A stretch of DNA of 64,000 nucleotides, from assembly GCA_035544015.1 (NCBI GenBank), contig DATKIP010000076.1:299-64298 (forward strand), given 5' to 3'. The notes below the pieces were generated by a model. The model did not search any database, had not been told where the DNA came from, and was given only the letters and a program-made list of their open reading frames with translations. Below are positions 21 to 32,487 of this stretch, piece after piece (the first letter of the stretch is position 1; the number at the start of each line of letters is the position of its first letter). This stretch comes from Candidatus Saccharimonadia bacterium (GTDB lineage: Bacteria; Patescibacteriota; Saccharimonadia; UBA4664). A program made the translations under genes and the position numbers.

Positions 21-845
21 ATGAGCCTCGGATTTATTCGTCCGTCTAGCATAGTGGCCTGCGACCACTCCGACTTCAACGGCCTCATGGCCTTCGTCGG
101 TGCCGTCCAAACCCATCGCGGCCGAGCCATTCCCTGCCTGGTCGAAACAACGTACTCGCCGCGTTTGCCGGCGCGCGGCGATGATATACCGATACGCAAG
201 CGAAAACTGCGTCAGGCGTATCGCCAGCAGGGCTACAATCTGTACGACCAAGCCGAAATGGCTCTTGAGGACTTTGCGGACAAGCTCGGATTTTGGCCGC
301 GGCTGGTGTTCGACCGTGGGTTTGGAGGCAAGCACTTCGTGCATACTTTAATGCGACATAAAGCCATATTCTACATCCGGCTCAAGGCTCGACGATTCGT
401 AGATTTCGGAGTAGAGCACGTGCGAGTGAGCGAACTGACCAGCTTAGACGAGCAGGTTCAGCTGGATGGTATGAAGTTGCGGATTGTCCGCAGCGACGAC
501 CCCGAAACGGGTGAACCCTGGTACATTTTGACTTCAGATATGGGCAGCCGGCGGCAGAAAATCGTCCGAATCTACTACCGCCGGTTTGAGATTGAAGAGA
601 CATTTAAGGATCTCAAGCACATCCTCGACCTCGACCAATCCAAGCTCAACCGGCCGCTCAGTCTCAAAGTGGTATTGTGGTTTACAAGTTTGAGCGTGAT
701 TTTGTCATTTCTGGTCGGTTGGTGGACCCGAAAACCAGACAAAACACGACATACCAAGAAGACTCTGTCGTGGTTTCGGCAATTCTTTGAGGCTCTGGAG
801 AGGGAAATGTTGCAACCAGCCTGTCAGGTGATTACGGGAGGGTGA
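21..845 (+). CDS. IS4-family (DDE) transposase, probably the 3' part of an IS element truncated by the window edge
   Basis: The translation carries a DDE-transposase-like segment (FDRGF...YRRFEIEETFKDLK) typical of the IS4/IS701 C-terminal catalytic region. The ORF runs from the window start. The terminal inverted repeat was not identified. Confidence 0.7.
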   Translation: MSLGFIRPSSIVACDHSDFNGLMAFVGAVQTHRGRAIPCLVETTYSPRLPARGDDIPIRKRKLRQAYRQQGYNLYDQAEMALEDFADKLGFWPRLVFDRGFGGKHFVHTLMRHKAIFYIRLKARRFVDFGVEHVRVSELTSLDEQVQLDGMKLRIVRSDDPETGEPWYILTSDMGSRRQKIVRIYYRRFEIEETFKDLKHILDLDQSKLNRPLSLKVVLWFTSLSVILSFLVGWWTRKPDKTRHTKKTLSWFRQFFEALEREMLQPACQVITGG

Positions 846-928
846 GCAAGTGAGGGTGGGTCAGACGAGGGATTTTGACAATTGCAGAAATTATATTATT
901 ATAACAAAACGTACGTCCCTACATCGAG

Positions 929-1612
929 ATGGAGTGGCACATGACCACGAGTACGCGCACCCCCTTATCGCCGGCCGCACTGCGAGTGTGGGGCGACCTG
1001 CTCCGCGCCGCCAACGGCGTCGAGCAGCCGGGCCACGCGGTCTTCCAGAAGCTGCTCGACTTCGGCTTCCAGCCGGCGGACCTGCCGGCCACGATTGGCG
1101 AGTTCGTGGCCAAGGTGGTCGGCGGCGAGCTGGGCCGTGACCTCGGCCCACTGCAGCAGGGTCTGGCCGCCGCCCGGGCCCTCACCCCGGAGGAGCTCAC
1201 CGCCCGCGTCGACGCGCGCCACCAGCGGCAGCTCGAGGACTATCGGCAGCAGCTCACCGAGCTGAACGAGGCCCGGTCCCGGCTGCAGAAAATCACGGCC
1301 GCCGAACCGCCGACCCCCGAGCCGGGCGACCCCACCACGGTCGTGTTCCTGTACACCACCTGGGAGCAGGCGCTCGGGCACGCCCGGGGAATCGTGCGGG
1401 AGCTCGAGGAGGCGCTCCCGGCCTCCGAGCCGGTTCGGCAGAGCGAGGCCGCCTACGAGGAGGCGCTCGTCCACCGGCTGGAGGAGGACCTCCGCGCCAA
1501 CGAGTACCAGAACACCCAGACCGCCATGGGCTGGGCCACGGCCTACCAGAACGCCCTGGCCATCGCAGCCTGGGTCCTCACCCTCAAGCTCGATGACGGC
1601 GGAGCCGACTGA
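929..1612 (+). CDS. hypothetical protein (orphan ORF, about 70% GC, immediately after the IS fragment)
   Basis: Long ORF with a strong GC3 skew and no recognisable motif. An equally long antisense ORF (965..1708) exists, so the strand call relies on neighbour orientation. Confidence 0.4.
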   Translation: MEWHMTTSTRTPLSPAALRVWGDLLRAANGVEQPGHAVFQKLLDFGFQPADLPATIGEFVAKVVGGELGRDLGPLQQGLAAARALTPEELTARVDARHQRQLEDYRQQLTELNEARSRLQKITAAEPPTPEPGDPTTVVFLYTTWEQALGHARGIVRELEEALPASEPVRQSEAAYEEALVHRLEEDLRANEYQNTQTAMGWATAYQNALAIAAWVLTLKLDDGGAD

Positions 1613-1698
1613 ACAACCCATCCTGTCCGCCCTAGCGGCGCCTCCCCACACCCGGGGAGGCGCCGCTCGACACGTTAAATCCCTGCTACAATAGCCCC

Positions 1699-2256
1699 AT
1701 GATTGCAACTCTGCGTGGCGTCGTCACCGAAAAGCTCGAAACCAGCCTCGTACTCGAAGCGGGCGGCGTCGGCTACGAATTATTCGTCACGGTCGACGAA
1801 TGGGGGAGTGCCGAGCTTGGTGCCGTGGCCACGTATTACATCTCCGAGCAAATTCGCGAAGATGCGCACAATCTCTACGCCTTTAGCGCCCGCGCCTCCA
1901 AGCAACTCTTCGCCCAACTCATCGCCGTCAACGGCGTCGGCCCCAAAGTGGCGCTGCAAATTCTCTCGGCCGCCGGCGAATCGCGCCTTCGCCAAGCCAT
2001 TAACTCCAACGACCCCGCACTGCTCAAGGGCATCACCGGCGTCGGTCCCAAAACCGCCCACCGCGTCATCATGGAGCTGCGCGGTAAAGTAGAGGAGGGG
2101 AGCGCCGGCCTCGCGCCGGTGGCCGACCCCACCTACCAGGGCCTCGTGGCGCTCGGTTACACGCCCGCGCAGGCCACCGCCGCCGTCGCGCAGATTCCCG
2201 CCGACATCTCAGGTGACCAATCCCGCCTCAAAGCCGCCCTCAAGCAGGTCAAATAA
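1699..2256 (+). CDS. ruvA: Holliday junction branch-migration protein RuvA
   Basis: N-terminal OB-fold region (MIATLRGVV...GVGYEL). Tandem HhH motifs (NGVGPKVALQIL and GITGVGPKTAHRVIMEL). C-terminal RuvB-interaction domain. Confidence 0.9.
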   Translation: MIATLRGVVTEKLETSLVLEAGGVGYELFVTVDEWGSAELGAVATYYISEQIREDAHNLYAFSARASKQLFAQLIAVNGVGPKVALQILSAAGESRLRQAINSNDPALLKGITGVGPKTAHRVIMELRGKVEEGSAGLAPVADPTYQGLVALGYTPAQATAAVAQIPADISGDQSRLKAALKQVK

Positions 2257-2679
2257 ATGCCGGTACCAATCCTCAAAGTCGCCGCCAAAGCCGTCATCCT
2301 AGACCCCGCCGGCCAAGTGCTCATCCTGCGCGAAGGCCCGGCCGGCGACGGCAACACTAATGTCGGCCGCTACCAACTACCCGGCGGCAAGCTCGAACCC
2401 GGCGAGGCCTTCGCCGACGGCTTGGCGCGCGAGATCAAAGAGGAGACCGGCCTCACCGTCGAGGTCATCCGGCCGCTGCATGTCGGCGAGTGGCGGCCGC
2501 ATGTCCATGGCCAAACCCTGCAGATTGTTGGTATATTTATGCTCTGCCGCACCGAGGTTACAGACATTACCCTCAGCGACGAACACGACGATCATCAATG
2601 GATCGATCCCGCCCAGCGTCACCATTACGACCTCATGCCCCCGGAAGACGCCGTGATCGATCAGCTTATATCAGAATAG
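2257..2679 (+). CDS. NUDIX hydrolase
   Basis: Nudix box GGKLEPGEAFADGLAREIKEETGL, matching GX5EX7REUXEEXGU. Confidence 0.85.
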   Translation: MPVPILKVAAKAVILDPAGQVLILREGPAGDGNTNVGRYQLPGGKLEPGEAFADGLAREIKEETGLTVEVIRPLHVGEWRPHVHGQTLQIVGIFMLCRTEVTDITLSDEHDDHQWIDPAQRHHYDLMPPEDAVIDQLISE

Positions 2680-2716
2680 ACGCCAGCTACCCCCGTACGG
2701 TACGCTAAACACACCC

Positions 2717-3442
2717 ATGTCACCCAAGCCATCAGCCCCCAACCCTAGCGCCCGCCGCCTCCTCGACGCCCTCAGTATCGTCGCCAATGTTTCGGCTGTC
2801 GTCGGCGTGTTTCAGAACAAGTCGCATATCATTATCATTATCGCCGCCTCCCTGGCGCTTGCGACCGGCGCATACCTGCTGATCGGGCGCTGGGGCAAGC
2901 CGCTCGGTCGCCAAGCCGCCTTCGTCATCCTCATGATGCTCGCGGGCAGTTCCACGCTGGCCGTCTCCATCGACCGCCTCGTTCTCGGCACGCCGTCTCA
3001 GCCCATTTTCGGCCCCCCAGCGAGCCCCACGCCGTCGGTCGCTCCCAGTTCTTCCCCCAGTCCCACGCCCAAACCCCTCTTCAGCGGCGCCATCACGCTC
3101 ACTAGCGGAGACGCCATCGACCTCGAAGCCGGCGGACGGATCACGCCCAATCAATCCCTCGCCACCGGCTCAAATGACCTATTCCTCAATGACACCAACG
3201 GCCTCGCCGCCAACGCCGACCACGCCGACTTTTACAGCGCGACCAACACATCCGAAAGCGAGGCCTATGCCCGCTGTGTATATCTCATTACCAACGACAA
3301 ATACCGTTCACTTGGTGCGTATTATGTGAGCGCCAACGACCAATATTGTTTCAAAACCTCCGACGGCCACATCGCCTGGTTTCGCAGCGTTCAGTCCGAA
3401 ACCCACAAGAAAGTTTTGAGCATTCGCGTTTGGGATAAATAA
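2717..3442 (+). CDS. hypothetical membrane-anchored protein with a Pro/Ser/Thr-rich linker
   Basis: N-terminal hydrophobic segments, a PSPTPSVAPSSSPSPTP linker, and a C-terminal globular part with Cys residues. Confidence 0.55.
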   Translation: MSPKPSAPNPSARRLLDALSIVANVSAVVGVFQNKSHIIIIIAASLALATGAYLLIGRWGKPLGRQAAFVILMMLAGSSTLAVSIDRLVLGTPSQPIFGPPASPTPSVAPSSSPSPTPKPLFSGAITLTSGDAIDLEAGGRITPNQSLATGSNDLFLNDTNGLAANADHADFYSATNTSESEAYARCVYLITNDKYRSLGAYYVSANDQYCFKTSDGHIAWFRSVQSETHKKVLSIRVWDK

Positions 3443-3783: not shown

Positions 3784-3853
3784 CCCCGCGCCACGCCAGG
3801 AATCTTCAACGCATCCCACTATCGATAGTAACCCGGTTTTTGGTAAGGTAATT

Positions 3854-4624
3854 TTGCGTAGTCATCCGAGTCCTGTAGGAGGACGCATGTCAGTAGGTCT
3901 GCTCGAACGCCCGGGTCCGGACGCCCTCCCGCGTCCCGAGACCTGGGCGGAATGGCTCACCGATCGCGCCGCCCGGCTCGAGGACTTTCTGCGCCGGCGC
4001 TCCGAGGAGCTGTTCGTCGGCGATCAGTTCGTCGCCCTGTGGCTCCCGGCTCGCCCGGGAATCACCTTCCACTACAAGTCCCGAGCCACGCTCGACCGGT
4101 TCAAGGAGGCGCCAGCCCCGCGGGCGGTCATCGCGGCCCATCGCCAGCAGTACGGCCTCACCGAGGCGGCCGCCCAGCTCCACTGGCGCGAGCTCATGCG
4201 CTACTTCGCCCTGGGCACCGTGTTCTCGTTCCCCTTCGGCATGACCTCGGAGGTGATCGACCACATCTGGCACGAGCTAGTGGAGCGCGACAACCACGGC
4301 GCGTGGGCTCGACAGGTCAGCCGCGTCGGCATCGGCCACCAACCCAGTGGCTCCGGCGACCCCGACCTCAACACCGACGGGCTCTTCCGGCTGGCCTACC
4401 GGCTGACCTTCAAGGAGGAGGCGCCGCATCACCTCTGGCCGCGCGATGGAGCATCATCGTGCTTCTTCTGTCCCAGCCCGGACGAGCCGGCGCCGCCTCG
4501 GCGACCGATCGAACCAGCTCCCTGGCCGTCGCAGTCGGCCGGCGAGGCGCTCTGCGGTCGCGTAAGCCGCGGGCTGACCAATGACTGGTGGCGGCACGTT
4601 CCGCCGCTTTCGGCCACGGCCTAG
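3854..4624 (+). CDS. hypothetical protein (GC-rich orphan; true start may be the internal Met near 3887)
   Basis: About 70% GC ORF between ruvA and ruvB with no recognisable motifs. Several antisense ORFs overlap it. Confidence 0.4.
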   Translation: MRSHPSPVGGRMSVGLLERPGPDALPRPETWAEWLTDRAARLEDFLRRRSEELFVGDQFVALWLPARPGITFHYKSRATLDRFKEAPAPRAVIAAHRQQYGLTEAAAQLHWRELMRYFALGTVFSFPFGMTSEVIDHIWHELVERDNHGAWARQVSRVGIGHQPSGSGDPDLNTDGLFRLAYRLTFKEEAPHHLWPRDGASSCFFCPSPDEPAPPRRPIEPAPWPSQSAGEALCGRVSRGLTNDWWRHVPPLSATA

Positions 4625-27420: not shown

Positions 27421-27558
27421 ATAACTTGACAATTATAGGCGAGCGCAACCTAATTGGTCAAACCGTAATCGCCCGCCTAAAGTATTGCAATATTTCAAAA
27501 ATTATGGTATAAAACCTTAGTTGCTCATCCACAAACCAGCCGGTTCCCGGAGGAATCA

Positions 27559-28071
27559 ATGCTCGGCTCGCACGGCCGCCACCGTCGCCCGCGTGGTCAC
27601 AAAGCCAACCCCGCGACTATCGCAATCCTCGCGCTCCTCGCCGCCGCCGTCCTCGGCGTCGCGAGTGGTGCCGGGTTCGCGAACACCCGCAACACGGCTC
27701 CCGGTCCGGGTATCGTCACGTCGGCTCCCCATCCCGGGCCGACCGAAACGGTCACCCAGGTGATGATGGTTCCGGAGCCGCCCAAGCCGGCGACAACCAC
27801 CAGCACCTACCGCCCCTTCCCGATCCGACCGCGGACCGCCGCCCCGTCCACGGCCGCACCGACTCCCGAGCCTTCCGCGACCGCCGCGCCGGCCGGCACC
27901 CCCAGTCCGCGCTCGCCGGCGACACCCCCGCTCGCTCCGCGGGCCAGCTCGCCGCCTATCGCGGCCAGCCCCACGGCCGAGCCCACGACACCCCCGGCGA
28001 CCCCAACCTCCGATCCGACCAGTGCCAGCCCTACGCCAACCGACCCCAGCGCACCGGTCGCAACCGGCTGA
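27559..28071 (+). CDS. Pro/Ala/Thr-rich low-complexity secreted or membrane-anchored protein (hypothetical)
   Basis: N-terminal hydrophobic segment followed by a PTPEPSATAAPAGTPSP-type low-complexity region. About 72% GC. The coding status is moderately uncertain. Confidence 0.4.
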   Translation: MLGSHGRHRRPRGHKANPATIAILALLAAAVLGVASGAGFANTRNTAPGPGIVTSAPHPGPTETVTQVMMVPEPPKPATTTSTYRPFPIRPRTAAPSTAAPTPEPSATAAPAGTPSPRSPATPPLAPRASSPPIAASPTAEPTTPPATPTSDPTSASPTPTDPSAPVATG

Positions 28072-28180
28072 GCAACAACCATCCGCCCCGCGAGCCGGCC
28101 CATCAGGGCCGGCTCCCCAACTCTGGATTTATCCCCCAAAATAAGGTAAAGTACCAAGGTCAAAAACCAAATACCGTCAT

Positions 28181-28258
28181 GGCGGGCGTAGCTCAGTTGG
28201 TTAGAGCGACTGGTTGTGGTCCAGTAGGTCGTGGGTTCAAGTCCCATCGCTCGCCCCA
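28181..28258 (+). tRNA. tRNA-His (anticodon GTG) with genomically encoded G-1
   Basis: An extra 5' G pairs with discriminator C73. Anticodon arm ACTGG-TTGTGGT-CCAGT, T loop TTCAAGT, CCA encoded. Confidence 0.85.
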
Positions 28259-28345
28259 TTTGCGCTTATGCTTATAACGGCTCTACAGAGTCGTTATTTT
28301 GTTATTACTGAACAAAACCAAAAAGTTGTTTCGAACATTTGGCAC

Positions 28346-28996
28346 TTAAAGCTCTGCCAAAGTATTTAAGCTCAGCTCTTCAAGCGAATCAACCACCAGG
28401 TCAGCTTCCGAGAACAATTTCCGGTCAATGTGTCGGTTCGGCACCGCAACCACTTTCATGCCCGCTCGTTTCGCCGCCGCTACCCCAGTCGGAGCATCTT
28501 CCAAAACTACGCACTCATCAGGCTTAACGCCAATTTCTTCTGCTGCTCGTAAGAAAATGTCTGGCTCTGGTTTGCCACGCTTCACCTGATCCCCGGAAAT
28601 AATTGCATCGAAATGATGACCCGCTTGAAGCTGCTCGATAACGATAATTATATGGTGACGCGCCGAGGATGAGGCAATTGCCTTCTTAATGCCTTGCTCC
28701 GATAAGTGGTCGAGCAAGGTCATAAGTCCTGGCATCGGCTGCATCCCCTTTGCTAATAGCTCCTCATAGACCTGTTGCTTTTTGTCGTACAAAACATCAA
28801 CGCTCTCGGAGAGCTGATGCACTTGTTTAAGACGTTCCCAATTATCCCTTGCCCCAACCCCCACTTCTTGCACGAGGCCACCATGAAGAACGGGAGTAAC
28901 CCCGTACTCCTGTAGCACCGCTTCAAACGACTTCGATTGAAGATGCTCGCTATCAATCATCAGGCCGTCCATGTCGAAAATAACTGCTTTTATCAT
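28346..28996 (-). CDS. HAD-IA family hydrolase (beta-phosphoglucomutase-like)
   Basis: MIKAVIFDMDGLMIDSE (motif I DxDG), later S/T and K motifs, and a GD motif near the C-terminus. The start was reassigned to the internal Met. The track ORF extends to 29137. Confidence 0.8.
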   Translation of the reverse strand: MIKAVIFDMDGLMIDSEHLQSKSFEAVLQEYGVTPVLHGGLVQEVGVGARDNWERLKQVHQLSESVDVLYDKKQQVYEELLAKGMQPMPGLMTLLDHLSEQGIKKAIASSSARHHIIIVIEQLQAGHHFDAIISGDQVKRGKPEPDIFLRAAEEIGVKPDECVVLEDAPTGVAAAKRAGMKVVAVPNRHIDRKLFSEADLVVDSLEELSLNTLAEL

Positions 28997-29044
28997 GCGC
29001 TCAATAATATCACCTCGAAACCACTTCTGAGCTATAATCCGATC

Positions 29045-29563
29045 ATGCCAACTGATCGAATCACCATTGTGAACGAAGCCGATAGCGTCATCGGCTCCGA
29101 AGACAGGAGCATTGCGCGCGCCCAGGGACTTCGGCATCGTATTGTGCGGGTCTTTTTGGTGAATTCAGAAGGTAAAGTGTTGCTCCATCGACGGTCAGAA
29201 AAGCTCAAGGATAATCCTGGAAAATGGGATCAGTCAGTCGGTGGTCATGTGGATGAAGGCGAAGACTACATCACGGCTGCCCGTCGAGAGACGCAGGAAG
29301 AGCTGGGAATTGCAGTAGAAAAATTTGAAGAAATCGGGAAATTCTATATCGAGCGCGAAGCTCCGGGCGGCTTCGTCAGAAGGTTTCAGGCCGTATTCAT
29401 CGCCAGAGGAGACGGCCCGGTCAAACTTGACGAGAGTGAAATTGCCGAGATTCGCTGGTTTGATATAGCGGAAGCAGCGGAGTTCTACTCGCAAAAACCC
29501 GACGCATTCACAAAGAATTTTGCTAGAGCCTTTGAGCTGCTCCAGAAGGCATTAGCGACCTGA
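29045..29563 (+). CDS. NUDIX hydrolase (second paralogue)
   Basis: Nudix box GGHVDEGEDYITAARRETQEELGI. The start was chosen at MPTDRITIV. The track ORF starts at a TTG at 28937. Confidence 0.8.
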   Translation: MPTDRITIVNEADSVIGSEDRSIARAQGLRHRIVRVFLVNSEGKVLLHRRSEKLKDNPGKWDQSVGGHVDEGEDYITAARRETQEELGIAVEKFEEIGKFYIEREAPGGFVRRFQAVFIARGDGPVKLDESEIAEIRWFDIAEAAEFYSQKPDAFTKNFARAFELLQKALAT

Positions 29564-29625
29564 ACTTAATATCATTAACCATCGCGCAAACCGCACCACA
29601 ACATTCTGTTCGAAACTTGAACTTA
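29563..29625. repeat. direct repeat copy 1 (about 60 bp) flanking the AlbA_2-ATPase cassette
   Basis: tgaacttaatatcattaaccatcgcgcaaaccgcaccacaacattctgttcgaaacttgaac. It recurs at 31361..31425 with roughly 85-90% identity. Confidence 0.8.
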
Positions 29626-29726
29626 CAAAGGGCCACTCGAAATAAAAATCAGCGCAGGCAAAACCCCAGTCGGCGTGACATTTGAGATTGCTTCGGCCAG
29701 TATTTAGCCACCAATGGAGGTCAGCT

Positions 29727-29800
29727 ATATCGTTAAATATCGTAAAAAAGGCGCTCTATTTTTGAGGTTAAGCGCAGCGAATCGTTAAATATCGTAAAAT
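29727..29800. repeat. two copies of a roughly 19-bp motif (atcgttaaatatcgtaaaa) about 54 bp apart, each with an internal ATCGT-N4-ATCGT sub-repeat
   Basis: Read directly in the 3' flank of the AlbA_2 gene. Confidence 0.7.
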
Positions 29801-29852
29801 GCTTAAGCTGGCATCTACAGATAAGAAATCACTATTGGTAAACAAAAACAAC

Positions 29853-31286
29853 CTAATGATTGCCGATTTCGTATGTGGTGCTAGGGCCTTGGCCGCGCTG
29901 AGCCACCAGGTCTAATTCTATAAGCTTATTGATGTCGGCGATGACCGTAGGGCGGGTAATCGAGCCAATGGTCTGAACTATGTCTCGCGACGTTGCAGAA
30001 GACTTGTTAAGAATAATCTGCCAAATAGCGAGCTGGCGCTCTGTTAACTCTGAATATGTCGGCCCAAGTAGTGTCACGGTGAACATATTGGCGACATTTC
30101 TAAAGATAGGCCGAGAAAGATTTACTTGGCGCATATAGTCATAAACAAGGTCAATACCGCGGCCATACTCCTCAAGATAACCCAAATCTTTCATCAGGGC
30201 AGCAATAACTGAATTTCTGCTAAACTGCGCCTCTCGAATGTTATCGACGGTAATTCGCGGAGGAAGAGTGCCGGGGTTGGAAATCTCGATTCGATCGGGG
30301 AAAACTCGTACCTGAATATAAGATTCGATGATGCTGTAGTCTCGATGAATAACAGCATTTGCGGCGATTTCACGAATAGCCTTTTCGGGGTAAGCGTATG
30401 TTTCCACCCGACGAGTACCCTCGATAGTGGCGCTTCTGGCAATATTTCTCAGTACAAACGAGTTCATGGTATCAATTTGTTCTTCAAGAGTCCCATGAAG
30501 GTCTTGCTTGTCGATTATTTCGCTTGCCGTAGTCGGGCCTGCGTATCGGACACAGCGAATAACGTACCGGTCTAGCTCAGGATTCCGCTGAGGCGGGTTG
30601 CTACTAAAGATCATTGCCCCAGCCAAGGTAGCCACCCTTTCGGACTCACAGATGGCAAGAATCTTCATGTTTAGGAGGGTGTCATCATGAATGGCATTCT
30701 CTCGCCCGGTTCTCTCGCCGAGTTCATGAATGAGGTGTTGAATCTTATCTTGGCTGAGATCGGCTTCATGTATCGAGCGAATTTGGGTCAAATCATATTT
30801 GAAACCCGATGAATTACGAATGAACTGCCTCAGCTCATCATCGGTAATGGGCCGATTACTATTCCCGACACGGATATAAGCACCACGATCCATGCCGAGC
30901 TTTCGGTCATAGCAGGGCTTCCTCTCGTCCGGTACTGCATCAATAACCACGGCAAGTAGAGTCTTCCCATCGATTGTAATCGCTCGATATTCTGGCCTCT
31001 CAGCGTTGATGATCCGATCGCTAAAGAAGTTTGTCGTTCGTTCGGTCATTTCATGGACATTTGTAACGCCAACCGGCGCAAACGTGCGCGTAACAGGGTC
31101 TTCGACTACACCGTATACAATTAAGCCTCCATCAGCGGCCTTGTTACTAAATGCGGTTATGCTACGCCAGATAATATCCGGTAAGCCACCCCGTGTATCT
31201 TTGAACTCGACTAAATTGGTCTCTCCGTTGGATTGGATAGCTTCTTGCACCAGTGATGTGAGTTCGGCTTCGGATATGCCTCTCAT
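29853..31286 (-). CDS. AlbA_2 (divergent AAA-4 / Schlafen-like) domain ATP-binding protein with a C-terminal wHTH domain (putative DNA-binding regulator or defence-type ATPase)
   Basis: N-terminal LVEFKDTRGGLPDIIWRSITAFSNKAADGGLIVYGV is typical of the AlbA_2 domain. The middle region is HATPase_c_4-like. The C-terminus (QLAIWQIILNKSSATSRDIVQTIGSITRPTVIADINKLIELDLV) is HTH-like. Confidence 0.65.
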   Translation of the reverse strand: MRGISEAELTSLVQEAIQSNGETNLVEFKDTRGGLPDIIWRSITAFSNKAADGGLIVYGVVEDPVTRTFAPVGVTNVHEMTERTTNFFSDRIINAERPEYRAITIDGKTLLAVVIDAVPDERKPCYDRKLGMDRGAYIRVGNSNRPITDDELRQFIRNSSGFKYDLTQIRSIHEADLSQDKIQHLIHELGERTGRENAIHDDTLLNMKILAICESERVATLAGAMIFSSNPPQRNPELDRYVIRCVRYAGPTTASEIIDKQDLHGTLEEQIDTMNSFVLRNIARSATIEGTRRVETYAYPEKAIREIAANAVIHRDYSIIESYIQVRVFPDRIEISNPGTLPPRITVDNIREAQFSRNSVIAALMKDLGYLEEYGRGIDLVYDYMRQVNLSRPIFRNVANMFTVTLLGPTYSELTERQLAIWQIILNKSSATSRDIVQTIGSITRPTVIADINKLIELDLVAQRGQGPSTTYEIGNH

Positions 31287-31360
31287 ATTTCCTCGGAATA
31301 AGTCCTTATAATATAACAGCTCATCTGGGATAGCGCCTGAATTTAAGCAGCCAGCACCGA

Positions 31361-31425
31361 TCTGAACTTAATATCATTCACCATCGCGCAAACTGCGGCG
31401 TAGCACTCTGTTCGAAACTTGAACC
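31361..31425. repeat. direct repeat copy 2, followed by a 12-bp copy of the tRNA-His 3' end (gctcgccccatt)
   Basis: ctgaacttaatatcattcaccatcgcgcaaactgcggcgtagcactctgttcgaaacttgaacc, then ctagctcgccccatt. The tRNA-His 3' end at 28247..28260 is catcgctcgccccatt. Confidence 0.75.
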
Positions 31426-31449
31426 CTAGCTCGCCCCATTGCAATTGTC

Positions 31450-31479
31450 TTGACGACCAAATTTATCATCTGATATTAT
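31450..31479 (+). promoter_or_regulatory. strong sigma70-like promoter (TTGACG-18-TATTAT)
   Basis: Near-consensus hexamers. No protein-coding ORF follows within 170 nt. Confidence 0.5.
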
Positions 31480-31485
31480 CAAACT

Positions 31486-31660
31486 CGGAAGACATGGGAG
31501 GATATAAAGAAGCTCCTAGATGTAGCCTGTCGAGTTAAGAATGTTTTGTTCAATGTCCGCCGTCCGAGTTCGATGCTTTGTTAGTTAGTAAGCTGCATCA
31601 CCGCGACGTCTTCCATCCAGTCCGTAAAATAAGAGGCATTTAAATGCCTCTTATTTTTTT
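31486..31660 (+). ncRNA. candidate small RNA (about 170 nt) bounded by the promoter at 31450 and an intrinsic terminator
   Basis: A promoter and terminator bracket a region that contains only ORFs of 14 aa or less and no RBS. Confidence 0.3.
31627..31660 (+). terminator. rho-independent terminator (aagaggcatttaaatgcctctt + T8)
   Basis: Perfect 9-bp stem with a 4-nt loop, followed by TATTTTTTT. Confidence 0.85.
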
Positions 31661-31908
31661 GTTTCCCCATCTTCGACCCTAAATTAGCATTAGAACAAGA
31701 GGGGCAAGATGCGGCGGCTCCATTGCATGCCGGGCTAAGCCCCTGGGATATGCCTTGTTTGATAAAGGAAAATGCTAAACAGAATTGGAACAAGCTAGAG
31801 CAGCTACTTGCCAACCAGAACGGCAGACATAAATTTTGGCAGGCTATTTTTTTGCGAGCCAGGCCAGCACATGCTTTAATTAAGCATAAGCAGTAATGAA
31901 GGGCTTCA

Positions 31909-32487
31909 ATGCCGAAACAGTCTCGCCGCAGAATCAATTCTCGACTTATTTTCTCTATCCTTGGCGGATTCGCGGTTTTAGCGCTCCTCGCACAGGCCAT
32001 GTTGATAATGCAGCTCTACGCTCGTACCGACCAGCTAAAGACCCAAGAACTAAAAGCCACCCTAATCGATGCCGTTCGCAGCCTAAACACTGAGCCTGCG
32101 ATTGACCCCCAAACCGGACGCCGATTTATCCCTTCCGCTCGCGTGGTTTTTCCTGCCAGGATCGACAGCCACCTTTATTACCGCGACCCCGGCAACGAGC
32201 CCACCCTATGGCTAACCGACGCGAATAATCAATCGCAGGCCGTCACCAAGGTCCGGACCGCTGAATCGCTCTCAGACATGTTTAAAGAAGTCGATGCGTT
32301 GCAGCTGTGTAGCCGGCAGGTAGTAGTGAGCTTTAATACTCCCAATCCCCAAGATAATACCGACAAGCTAACTTTAAAAAGCACGAAAAAGCTAAAAGAC
32401 GGCCGCATAGCCTACGTATATCAGAATGAATGCCCATACGGCGCCGAGCCTCTCCTGAGGTCCGTCGATCAAATGGAAAGCTATTAA
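31909..32487 (+). CDS. hypothetical N-terminally anchored extracellular protein
   Basis: TM/signal segment LIFSILGGFAVLALLAQAMLI and a C-terminal Cys pair. Confidence 0.5.
   Translation: MPKQSRRRINSRLIFSILGGFAVLALLAQAMLIMQLYARTDQLKTQELKATLIDAVRSLNTEPAIDPQTGRRFIPSARVVFPARIDSHLYYRDPGNEPTLWLTDANNQSQAVTKVRTAESLSDMFKEVDALQLCSRQVVVSFNTPNPQDNTDKLTLKSTKKLKDGRIAYVYQNECPYGAEPLLRSVDQMESY

Follow-up and report, generated by a model that had tools for sequence, protein, structure and literature searches.

Within the window, by which we mean the whole 64-kb stretch of DNA that was analysed, the genes that follow tRNA-His run in the order HAD hydrolase (− strand), NUDIX (+ strand), a first copy of a repeat, a reverse-oriented Schlafen/AlbA_2-HATPase_c_4 gene, a second copy of the repeat, the candidate unit studied here, and a gene for a 192-aa protein (Table 1). 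GC content between tRNA-His and ~38 kb is 46–55%, compared with about 60% for the genome. The sequence-only reading of this DNA had proposed that a promoter and a terminator beside repeat copy 2 delimit a small RNA (sRNA) of roughly 170 nt. The position next to the repeat was confirmed, as copy 2 adjoins the unit and runs on as a tRNA-His-like tail to 31439.

Table 1. Features of the tRNA-His array and of the candidate unit (window coordinates)
Feature	Position	Strand	Details
tRNA-His (GTG)	28182–28258	+	ARAGORN and Rfam; anchor of the array; 3′ end TCGCTCGCCCCA
tRNA-His terminator	28274–28297	+	ATAACGGCTCTACAGAGTCGTTAT + TTTTGTT; prototype of the junction terminators
Repeat copy 1	29544–29622	+	at 3′ end of NUDIX gene; truncated after ..CTTGAAC
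Schlafen/AlbA_2-HATPase_c_4 gene	29853–31286	−	
Repeat copy 2	31346–31424	+	79-nt core of the junction module
tRNA-His-3′-like tail	31425–31439	+	CCTAGCTCGCCCCA (31425–31438) plus next base T
Junction spacer start	31440–31447	+	TGCAATTGT
173-nt insert	31448–31620	+	from alignments; holds promoter, RBS-like motif and body of candidate RNA
Sigma-70-type promoter	TTGACG 31450–31455, 18-nt spacer, TATTAT 31474–31479	+	extended −10 TG 31471–31472
Stretch conserved in P0134	31474–31560	+	25/29 codons in frame +1; nucleotide identity at most 89%
RBS-like motif	31495–31506	+	TGGGAGGATATA, CTCGGA before, no start codon behind
Intrinsic terminator	31626–31660	+	hairpin 31626–31657, then T7 (31654–31660)
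Post-terminator motif	31672–31683	+	TTCGACCCTAAA; counterpart TTCGAACCCAAA usual in other junction copies
192-aa gene	31909–32487	+	

The repeat is part of a junction module that recurs in other loci. Copy 2 is 96% identical over 74 nt to copy B of L007, a Patescibacteria MAG that shares the tRNA-Arg/Gly/Pro/His cluster of the window, and a 29-mer spanning the end of the repeat and the tail (GTTCGAAACTTGAACCCTAGCTCGCCCCA, 31410–31438) is identical in L004 and in both L007 copies, while a 21-mer inside it is also exact in the metagenome contigs L008 and L009. In L004, a distant contig, the 29-mer (2183–2211) sits behind a PhdYeFM-ParE pair. Blastn detected three copies of the module in L008, two of them complete and the third cut by the contig end, and the complete junctions used for comparison were five in number (two each in L007 and L008 and one in L009). 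A complete junction consists of the ~79-nt repeat, the tail CCTAGCTCGCCCCA, a spacer of ~13 nt and a terminator of the form TAAAATAA-stem-TTATTTT, and in all five of these junctions the terminator comes no more than ~15 nt after the tail. In the window, the final 12 nt of this tail (TAGCTCGCCCCA, 31427–31438) differ from the end of tRNA-His itself (TCGCTCGCCCCA, 28247–28258) by one mismatch. Furthermore, this spacer and terminator also come after the genuine tRNA-His gene, both in the window and in L007, which indicates that the junction derives from the 3′ end of tRNA-His together with its terminator and, on these alignments, serves as the separator between cassettes of one or two genes. The junction has this role in the Saccharimonadia genome of the window and in four further contigs, so that arrays of this kind extend to other Patescibacteria. 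Such units include Phd/ParE-like and Phd/RelE-like pairs. The order in L007 is tRNA-His, gene, junction, gene, junction, and the arrays span 28182–31700 in the window, 650–3113 (− strand) in L007, 1040–3275 in L008 and 80–212 in L009. Between genomes the junction copies are 96% alike, compared with 82% for the tRNA flank. The consensus fold of seven repeat copies contained only a 5-bp hairpin with no compensatory changes, and we therefore treated the repeat as a DNA-level element. A structured RNA or a tRNA within the 79 nt had been considered and was rejected on this fold and on the ARAGORN result, which returned no tRNA there.

Repeat copy 1 carries neither the tRNA-like tail nor a terminator, and it breaks off exactly between ..CTTGAAC and TTACAAAG. 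It seems that the reverse-oriented Schlafen/AlbA_2-HATPase_c_4 gene either entered the copy-1 junction by insertion or recombined with it, the interval concerned being 29623–31345. Upstream of copy 2 we also observed the apparent last codons and TGA of a lost gene, which align with the NUDIX stop.

Turning to the signals of the unit itself, the near-consensus TTGACG-18-TATTAT promoter claimed for 31450–31479 is present, with a score of 10/12 against the sigma-70 consensus, both hexamers recognisable, a spacer inside the 16–18 nt range and a TG one base before the −10 box. Dinucleotide shuffles of the 339 nt from the AlbA_2 start to the terminator reached a match of at least 10/12 in 3.4% of cases, and a match of at least 10/12 plus TG in 0.12%, the TG being a post-hoc criterion. 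Across the entire 64-kb window, on both strands, there are only 12 matches of at least 10/12. The best promoter match near the array is a TTGACC-18-TATAAT (11/12) at 27432–27461 on the − strand, directly upstream of tRNA-Pro, and this example suggests that 18-nt spacers work in this genome. At the other end of the unit lies an intrinsic (Rho-independent) terminator, in which a 9-bp core (AAGAGGCAT/ATGCCTCTT) is lengthened to 14 bp by A-U pairs around a 4-nt loop. Its hairpin has an energy of −17.1 kcal/mol (z −6.8), and between 26 and 45 kb only one other strong terminator is present. The 9-bp core was as originally described, although the T-run is seven and not eight nucleotides long and the hairpin begins at 31626. 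Transcription is predicted from sequence to start near 31486 and, if ended at 31660, would give an RNA of about 175 nt, in good agreement with the ~170 nt first proposed.

The promoter and terminator are therefore real, beyond chance at a modest level. This bears on the explanation that the two are a fortuitous pairing of hexamers in AT-rich acquired DNA that is not transcribed, the terminator serving transcription from upstream. Regional counts are compatible with that, as promoter-like sites (4 versus 5.7 in shuffles) and terminator-like sites (4 versus 5.1) are neither of them above shuffled sequence, and the local GC of about 46% favours such matches. However, a match of this quality in 339 nt was attained by only the 3.4% of shuffles given above, and the sequence of the second locus, described below, allows for conservation of both the −10 box and the TG. 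In addition, the neighbouring AlbA_2 gene is read from the opposite strand, which makes it unlikely that transcription enters from upstream on the + strand. We consequently regard a chance pairing as unlikely.

The identity of the terminator nevertheless undermines one part of the sRNA proposal, namely that it defines an sRNA gene, as the 31626 hairpin is the homologous terminator of the repeated tRNA-His-derived junction. Its flanks, GTAAAATAA (containing TAAAATAA) on one side and TTATTTTTTTGTTT on the other, are common to junction terminators, while the stem differs on both arms. In copy A of L007 and in copy b of L008, the terminator is in turn followed by the next gene's promoter and leader.

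Where the window departs from the canonical junction is in 173 nt inserted between spacer and terminator. This insert is missing from 5/5 of the other complete junctions, and searches with nhmmer and tblastx found no copy elsewhere in the window or in other loci, the matches being the window's own contigs only. Behind the predicted start, the insert carries an RBS-like motif with GGGAGGA at 31496–31502. Among all locus DNA compared, the pattern TGGRAGGATATA occurs only at 31495 in the window and at 2096–2107 in L008; we estimate a chance expectation of ~0.02 for matches of this type in the roughly 85 kb of distinct locus DNA. In L008 the pattern serves as RBS for the cassette gene that follows junction b (CTCGGATTGGAAGGATATACCAAG-ATG, with the ATG 9 nt after GGAAGGA), and the leader of gene 2 in L007 likewise ends in ..GGATTGGAAGG. 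There is no ATG, GTG or TTG 5–12 nt behind the motif in the window. The motif is thus shared with a coding leader but has no start codon, and the insert therefore resembles the front of a cassette gene without the gene. The unit had been described as having no RBS and no ORF longer than 14 codons. An RBS-like sequence does exist, with no start codon behind it, and the statement on ORFs is correct for ATG starts only and fails for a 21-codon ORF that begins with TTG (31578–31643). The ORFs inside the unit are of 14, 21 and 24 codons, the shortest being the ATG-initiated one, and no gene is called over the unit in the window's own assembly.

Our leading, though still tentative, interpretation is that the promoter and leader of a cassette have been stranded in this interval and that transcription from them probably still runs as far as the junction terminator. 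In this mechanism the front end of a cassette gene, with its promoter, leader and RBS-like motif, would have been left inside a junction and closed by the junction's own terminator, the 173 nt between spacer and terminator having brought in promoter plus leader. The sequence from CTCGGA to TGGGAGGATATA would then correspond to the leader and RBS of the L008 cassette gene, which it matches. RNA polymerase would probably start near 31486 and stop at 31660, and the resulting ~175-nt RNA would be non-coding through loss of its gene and would not have evolved as a regulator. The stranded-leader reading explains the shared RBS-like motif, the missing start codon, the absence of a fold, the borrowed terminator and the absence of the insert elsewhere. 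Two observations speak against it. Canonical junctions place the promoter after the terminator, and therefore a simple origin by a single deletion fails; and a decaying remnant would not obviously conserve the −10 box and 87 nt above the level of the flank, as was found at a second locus.

That locus was identified using phmmer, which with the frame +1 translation of 31474–31581 as query matched P0134 among 1.8 billion proteins (25/29 residues, E 4.5e-6). P0134 is a 57-aa called ORF, at 3817–3990 of a 5,448-nt contig (JGI 3300078620). Two larger phmmer matches, P0132 and P0133, were judged spurious, their scores being summed over 5–6 internal repeats, and a profile search with P0134 plus the window translation gave no further member. 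For nucleotide comparison we aligned the back-translated codons of P0134 to the window and counted fully specified positions only. From the −10 box onward (87 nt) there were 6/53 mismatches, versus 9/21 in the 36 nt upstream (p 0.008). The P0134 codons C-Y-Y are consistent with both TATTAT and the TG before it. The order of tail, roughly 35 nt and −10 box is also the same. The better preservation of the presumed transcribed part over its upstream flank, seen in one locus, is the main evidence for a functional RNA. However, P0134 owes its N-terminal part to translation of a junction tail (..AAYYTNGCNYTN.. against ..CCCTAGCTCGCC..), and because this tail belongs to a different junction subtype, that of L008 copies a and c, the step in conservation at the −10 box could also have arisen from recombination replacing the upstream junction.

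The existence of P0134 also raises the question of whether the unit is a small-protein gene or its decayed remains, with the 57-aa ORF, hydrophobic in its N-terminal half and charged in its C-terminal half, a real product and the window copy a pseudogene. P0134 is a called gene, and 25/29 of its codons match frame +1 of the window. Against this, translation of its N-terminal half passes through junction repeat and tail, sequence that in all other copies does not code for protein, and the window interrupts the P0134 reading frame with two stops (31420 and 31471) and offers it no start codon. All four amino-acid differences are non-conservative, three of them requiring two base changes, and neither the profile search nor the assembly's gene calls added support. 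Two further points count towards the stranded leader: in P0134 itself the only possible start behind the motif is a Leu codon corresponding to 31513–31515 (YTN; TTG or CTG), 10 nt after it, and the two loci close the open frame at different positions. We consider a small-protein gene highly improbable. A conserved small protein with an RBS in homologous regions had been named as one finding that would overturn the sRNA proposal. The single homologous locus revealed no conserved ORF, and its sequence also abolishes the ATG of the 14-codon ORF (TGG to CAR).

We also assessed whether the unit behaves as a functional sRNA of ~175 nt, with its own promoter and the junction terminator, acting through the conserved 5′ 90 nt that include GGGAGGA. 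The promoter is beyond chance at the 3% level, the terminator is strong, the −10 box and the first 87 nt are kept above the flank in the P0134 locus, and reading frames are not maintained between the two loci, the 14-codon ATG being lost in P0134 and the P0134 frame being interrupted in the window. Structural and comparative evidence points the other way. The full unit folds with z −3.2, but this is owed to the terminator, because the insert body alone gave z −0.62 on the + strand and +0.48 on the − strand, no better than shuffles, and by our reading 2/3 of the substitution sites that fall in the predicted fold break pairs. Using Rfam 15 at gathering thresholds on the whole window we recovered seven tRNAs only, and relaxing the search to E ≤ 10 over 29400–32000 returned terminator-shaped noise of 17–22 bits. 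The STnc240 match is an example, scoring 22 bits versus a gathering score of 55 (E 4) and covering the terminator part only; the unit thus matched no known RNA family at either stringency. Likewise, exact complementarity of at least 11 nt occurs twice in the 64-kb window, where we estimate about 4 by chance, and duplex energies with five neighbouring 5′ regions (z −1.3 to +2.0) were none of them above shuffled controls; the proposed trans-acting role is speculative. The unit is also missing from 5/5 other complete junctions and is known from two loci only, and its RBS-like motif is common to a coding leader. The sRNA interpretation therefore survives in its promoter, its terminator, the lack of a conserved ORF and the 5′ conservation, and not in the specificity of its terminator, its fold, its Rfam membership or its complementarity. 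A functional small RNA is the main rival of the stranded leader; it is possible, and we judge it somewhat unlikely. The more specific suggestions of toxin-antitoxin RNAs fared worse. The ORFs of the unit are neither hydrophobic nor equipped with a correctly spaced RBS, as a type I system would have, and for type III there are no tandem repeats in 31287–31908 and no defence-family match for the downstream protein.

A further explanation is that the unit is a 5′ leader or attenuator for the 192-aa gene, in which transcription from the 31450 promoter would be regulated at the 31626 hairpin, possibly with a tiny leader ORF. In both loci a same-strand gene lies downstream, about 423 nt from the predicted transcription start in the window and about 228 nt in the P0134 locus, and the succession of an RBS-like motif, a short open frame and a terminator recalls leader-peptide attenuators. 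In addition, GGGAGG could pair with CCUCUU of the terminator 3′ arm. However, the terminator is of the generic junction type that is found after unrelated genes, there are 250 nt and a second promoter-like site (31808–31835) before the gene in the window, no canonical leader-peptide start is present, and no riboswitch, T-box or leader family was matched. The 185-aa protein encoded downstream on the P0134 contig is also absent among the homologues found for the 192-aa protein. We consider an attenuator very unlikely.

With regard to the 192-aa gene, its product is 100% identical to a protein of a Candidatus Saccharimonadia MAG. The NCBI annotation of this product (P0001) begins 33 codons late, giving 159 aa, and the longer start is probably correct because most of the homologues found are 191–193 aa long. 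These homologues occur in unrelated contexts, and their upstream DNA has no match to 31287–31908. Relatives carry a gene ahead of the 192-aa gene, and a remnant of it was sought in the window by tblastn, using seven neighbour proteins from L001, L004 and L006, but none was found. Between terminator and 192-aa gene there is a 57-codon TTG ORF (31723–31896, + strand) with no family match and not called in the assembly. The HAD protein has best matches of 90, 79 and 73% identity, all on contigs of 1–1.6 kb, which are too short to reach the unit.

The array shares traits with integron cassettes, tyrT repeats and att duplications, and is a member of none of these. Chromosomal integron arrays contain ORF-less or promoter-bearing cassettes bounded by repeats, often among toxin-antitoxin pairs. 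The window unit is similar in being short, geneless and promoter-bearing and in lying beside an ~80-nt repeat at the 3′ end of the preceding cassette. However, its array is anchored at a tRNA gene and not at an attI, the repeat ends in a tRNA-His 3′ copy plus terminator and has no attC-like inverted-repeat fold, and there is no integrase within about 15 kb, with neither an intI nor any other recombinase among 20 neighbouring proteins. At the tyrT locus of E. coli, tRNA-linked repeats downstream of the tRNA give rise to rtT RNA. The window resembles this in that its repeats lie downstream of a tRNA and each duplicates the 3′ end of that tRNA, a setting capable of producing short non-coding RNAs; but in the window entire genes stand between the repeats, the candidate RNA is served by its own promoter with no processing from a tRNA transcript, and Rfam reports no rtT match in the window (the term rtT appears in PMC8144298). 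As in islands bounded by attL and attR, a copy of the last 12 nt of tRNA-His, a direct repeat at the far border, is found 3.2 kb downstream from the intact gene, at the edge of low-GC cargo, although the copies recur after each single gene and the island contains no integrase. A phage or plasmid origin was likewise rejected, as blastn found no match for 29400–32000 and three viral-contig pattern scans were empty. Finally, the unit is similar to enterobacterial intergenic sRNAs in its sigma-70 promoter, body of about 140 nt and intrinsic terminator, but differs from them in having no conserved fold or identified target and in matching Rfam models only below threshold through its terminator.

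A different view of the insert is that the unit is a mobile, ORF-less cassette for a selected regulatory RNA in an undescribed tRNA-His array of Saccharimonadia without an integrase. Selection on the RNA would explain why the −10 box and the 5′ 87 nt are conserved in a second array of different composition, although we think such a cassette improbable. Overall, the locus is best described as an orphan unit of promoter and leader within a cassette junction derived from tRNA-His, for which the sRNA reading is partly supported.

By itself the unit matters little: it adds another orphan pair of promoter and terminator to acquired DNA, it has a single homologue and it shows no fold. Of greater value is the context, as the junction shows these reduced genomes shuffling single genes and toxin-antitoxin pairs beside tRNA-His with no visible integrase. 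We found no description of such cassette arrays, and nothing relevant on sRNAs, in the literature on Saccharibacteria. To our knowledge no sRNA has been characterised in Saccharimonadia or in the wider candidate phyla radiation. If the RNA were functional it would provide a first handle on riboregulation in the Saccharimonadia group and on the expression of cassette arrays.

Three smaller observations concern the region around the unit. A contig of an independent Logan assembly (L011, SRR8863102) is identical to the window over 28000–31655 and ends inside the terminator palindrome, its position 1 being window position 31655; we attribute this end to a probable break in assembly at the inverted repeat, as opposed to a true variant. 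The AlbA_2/Schlafen protein gave partial PADLOC matches to pAgo and pAgo-associated SIR2 models (E 1e-20 to 1e-12), probably owing to a domain in common and not to the presence of a full defence system. Lastly, the 3′ flank of the AlbA_2 gene contains a perfect 19-nt direct repeat (ATCGTTAAATATCGTAAAA), with copies at 29729–29747 and 29781–29799 that lie 52 nt apart.
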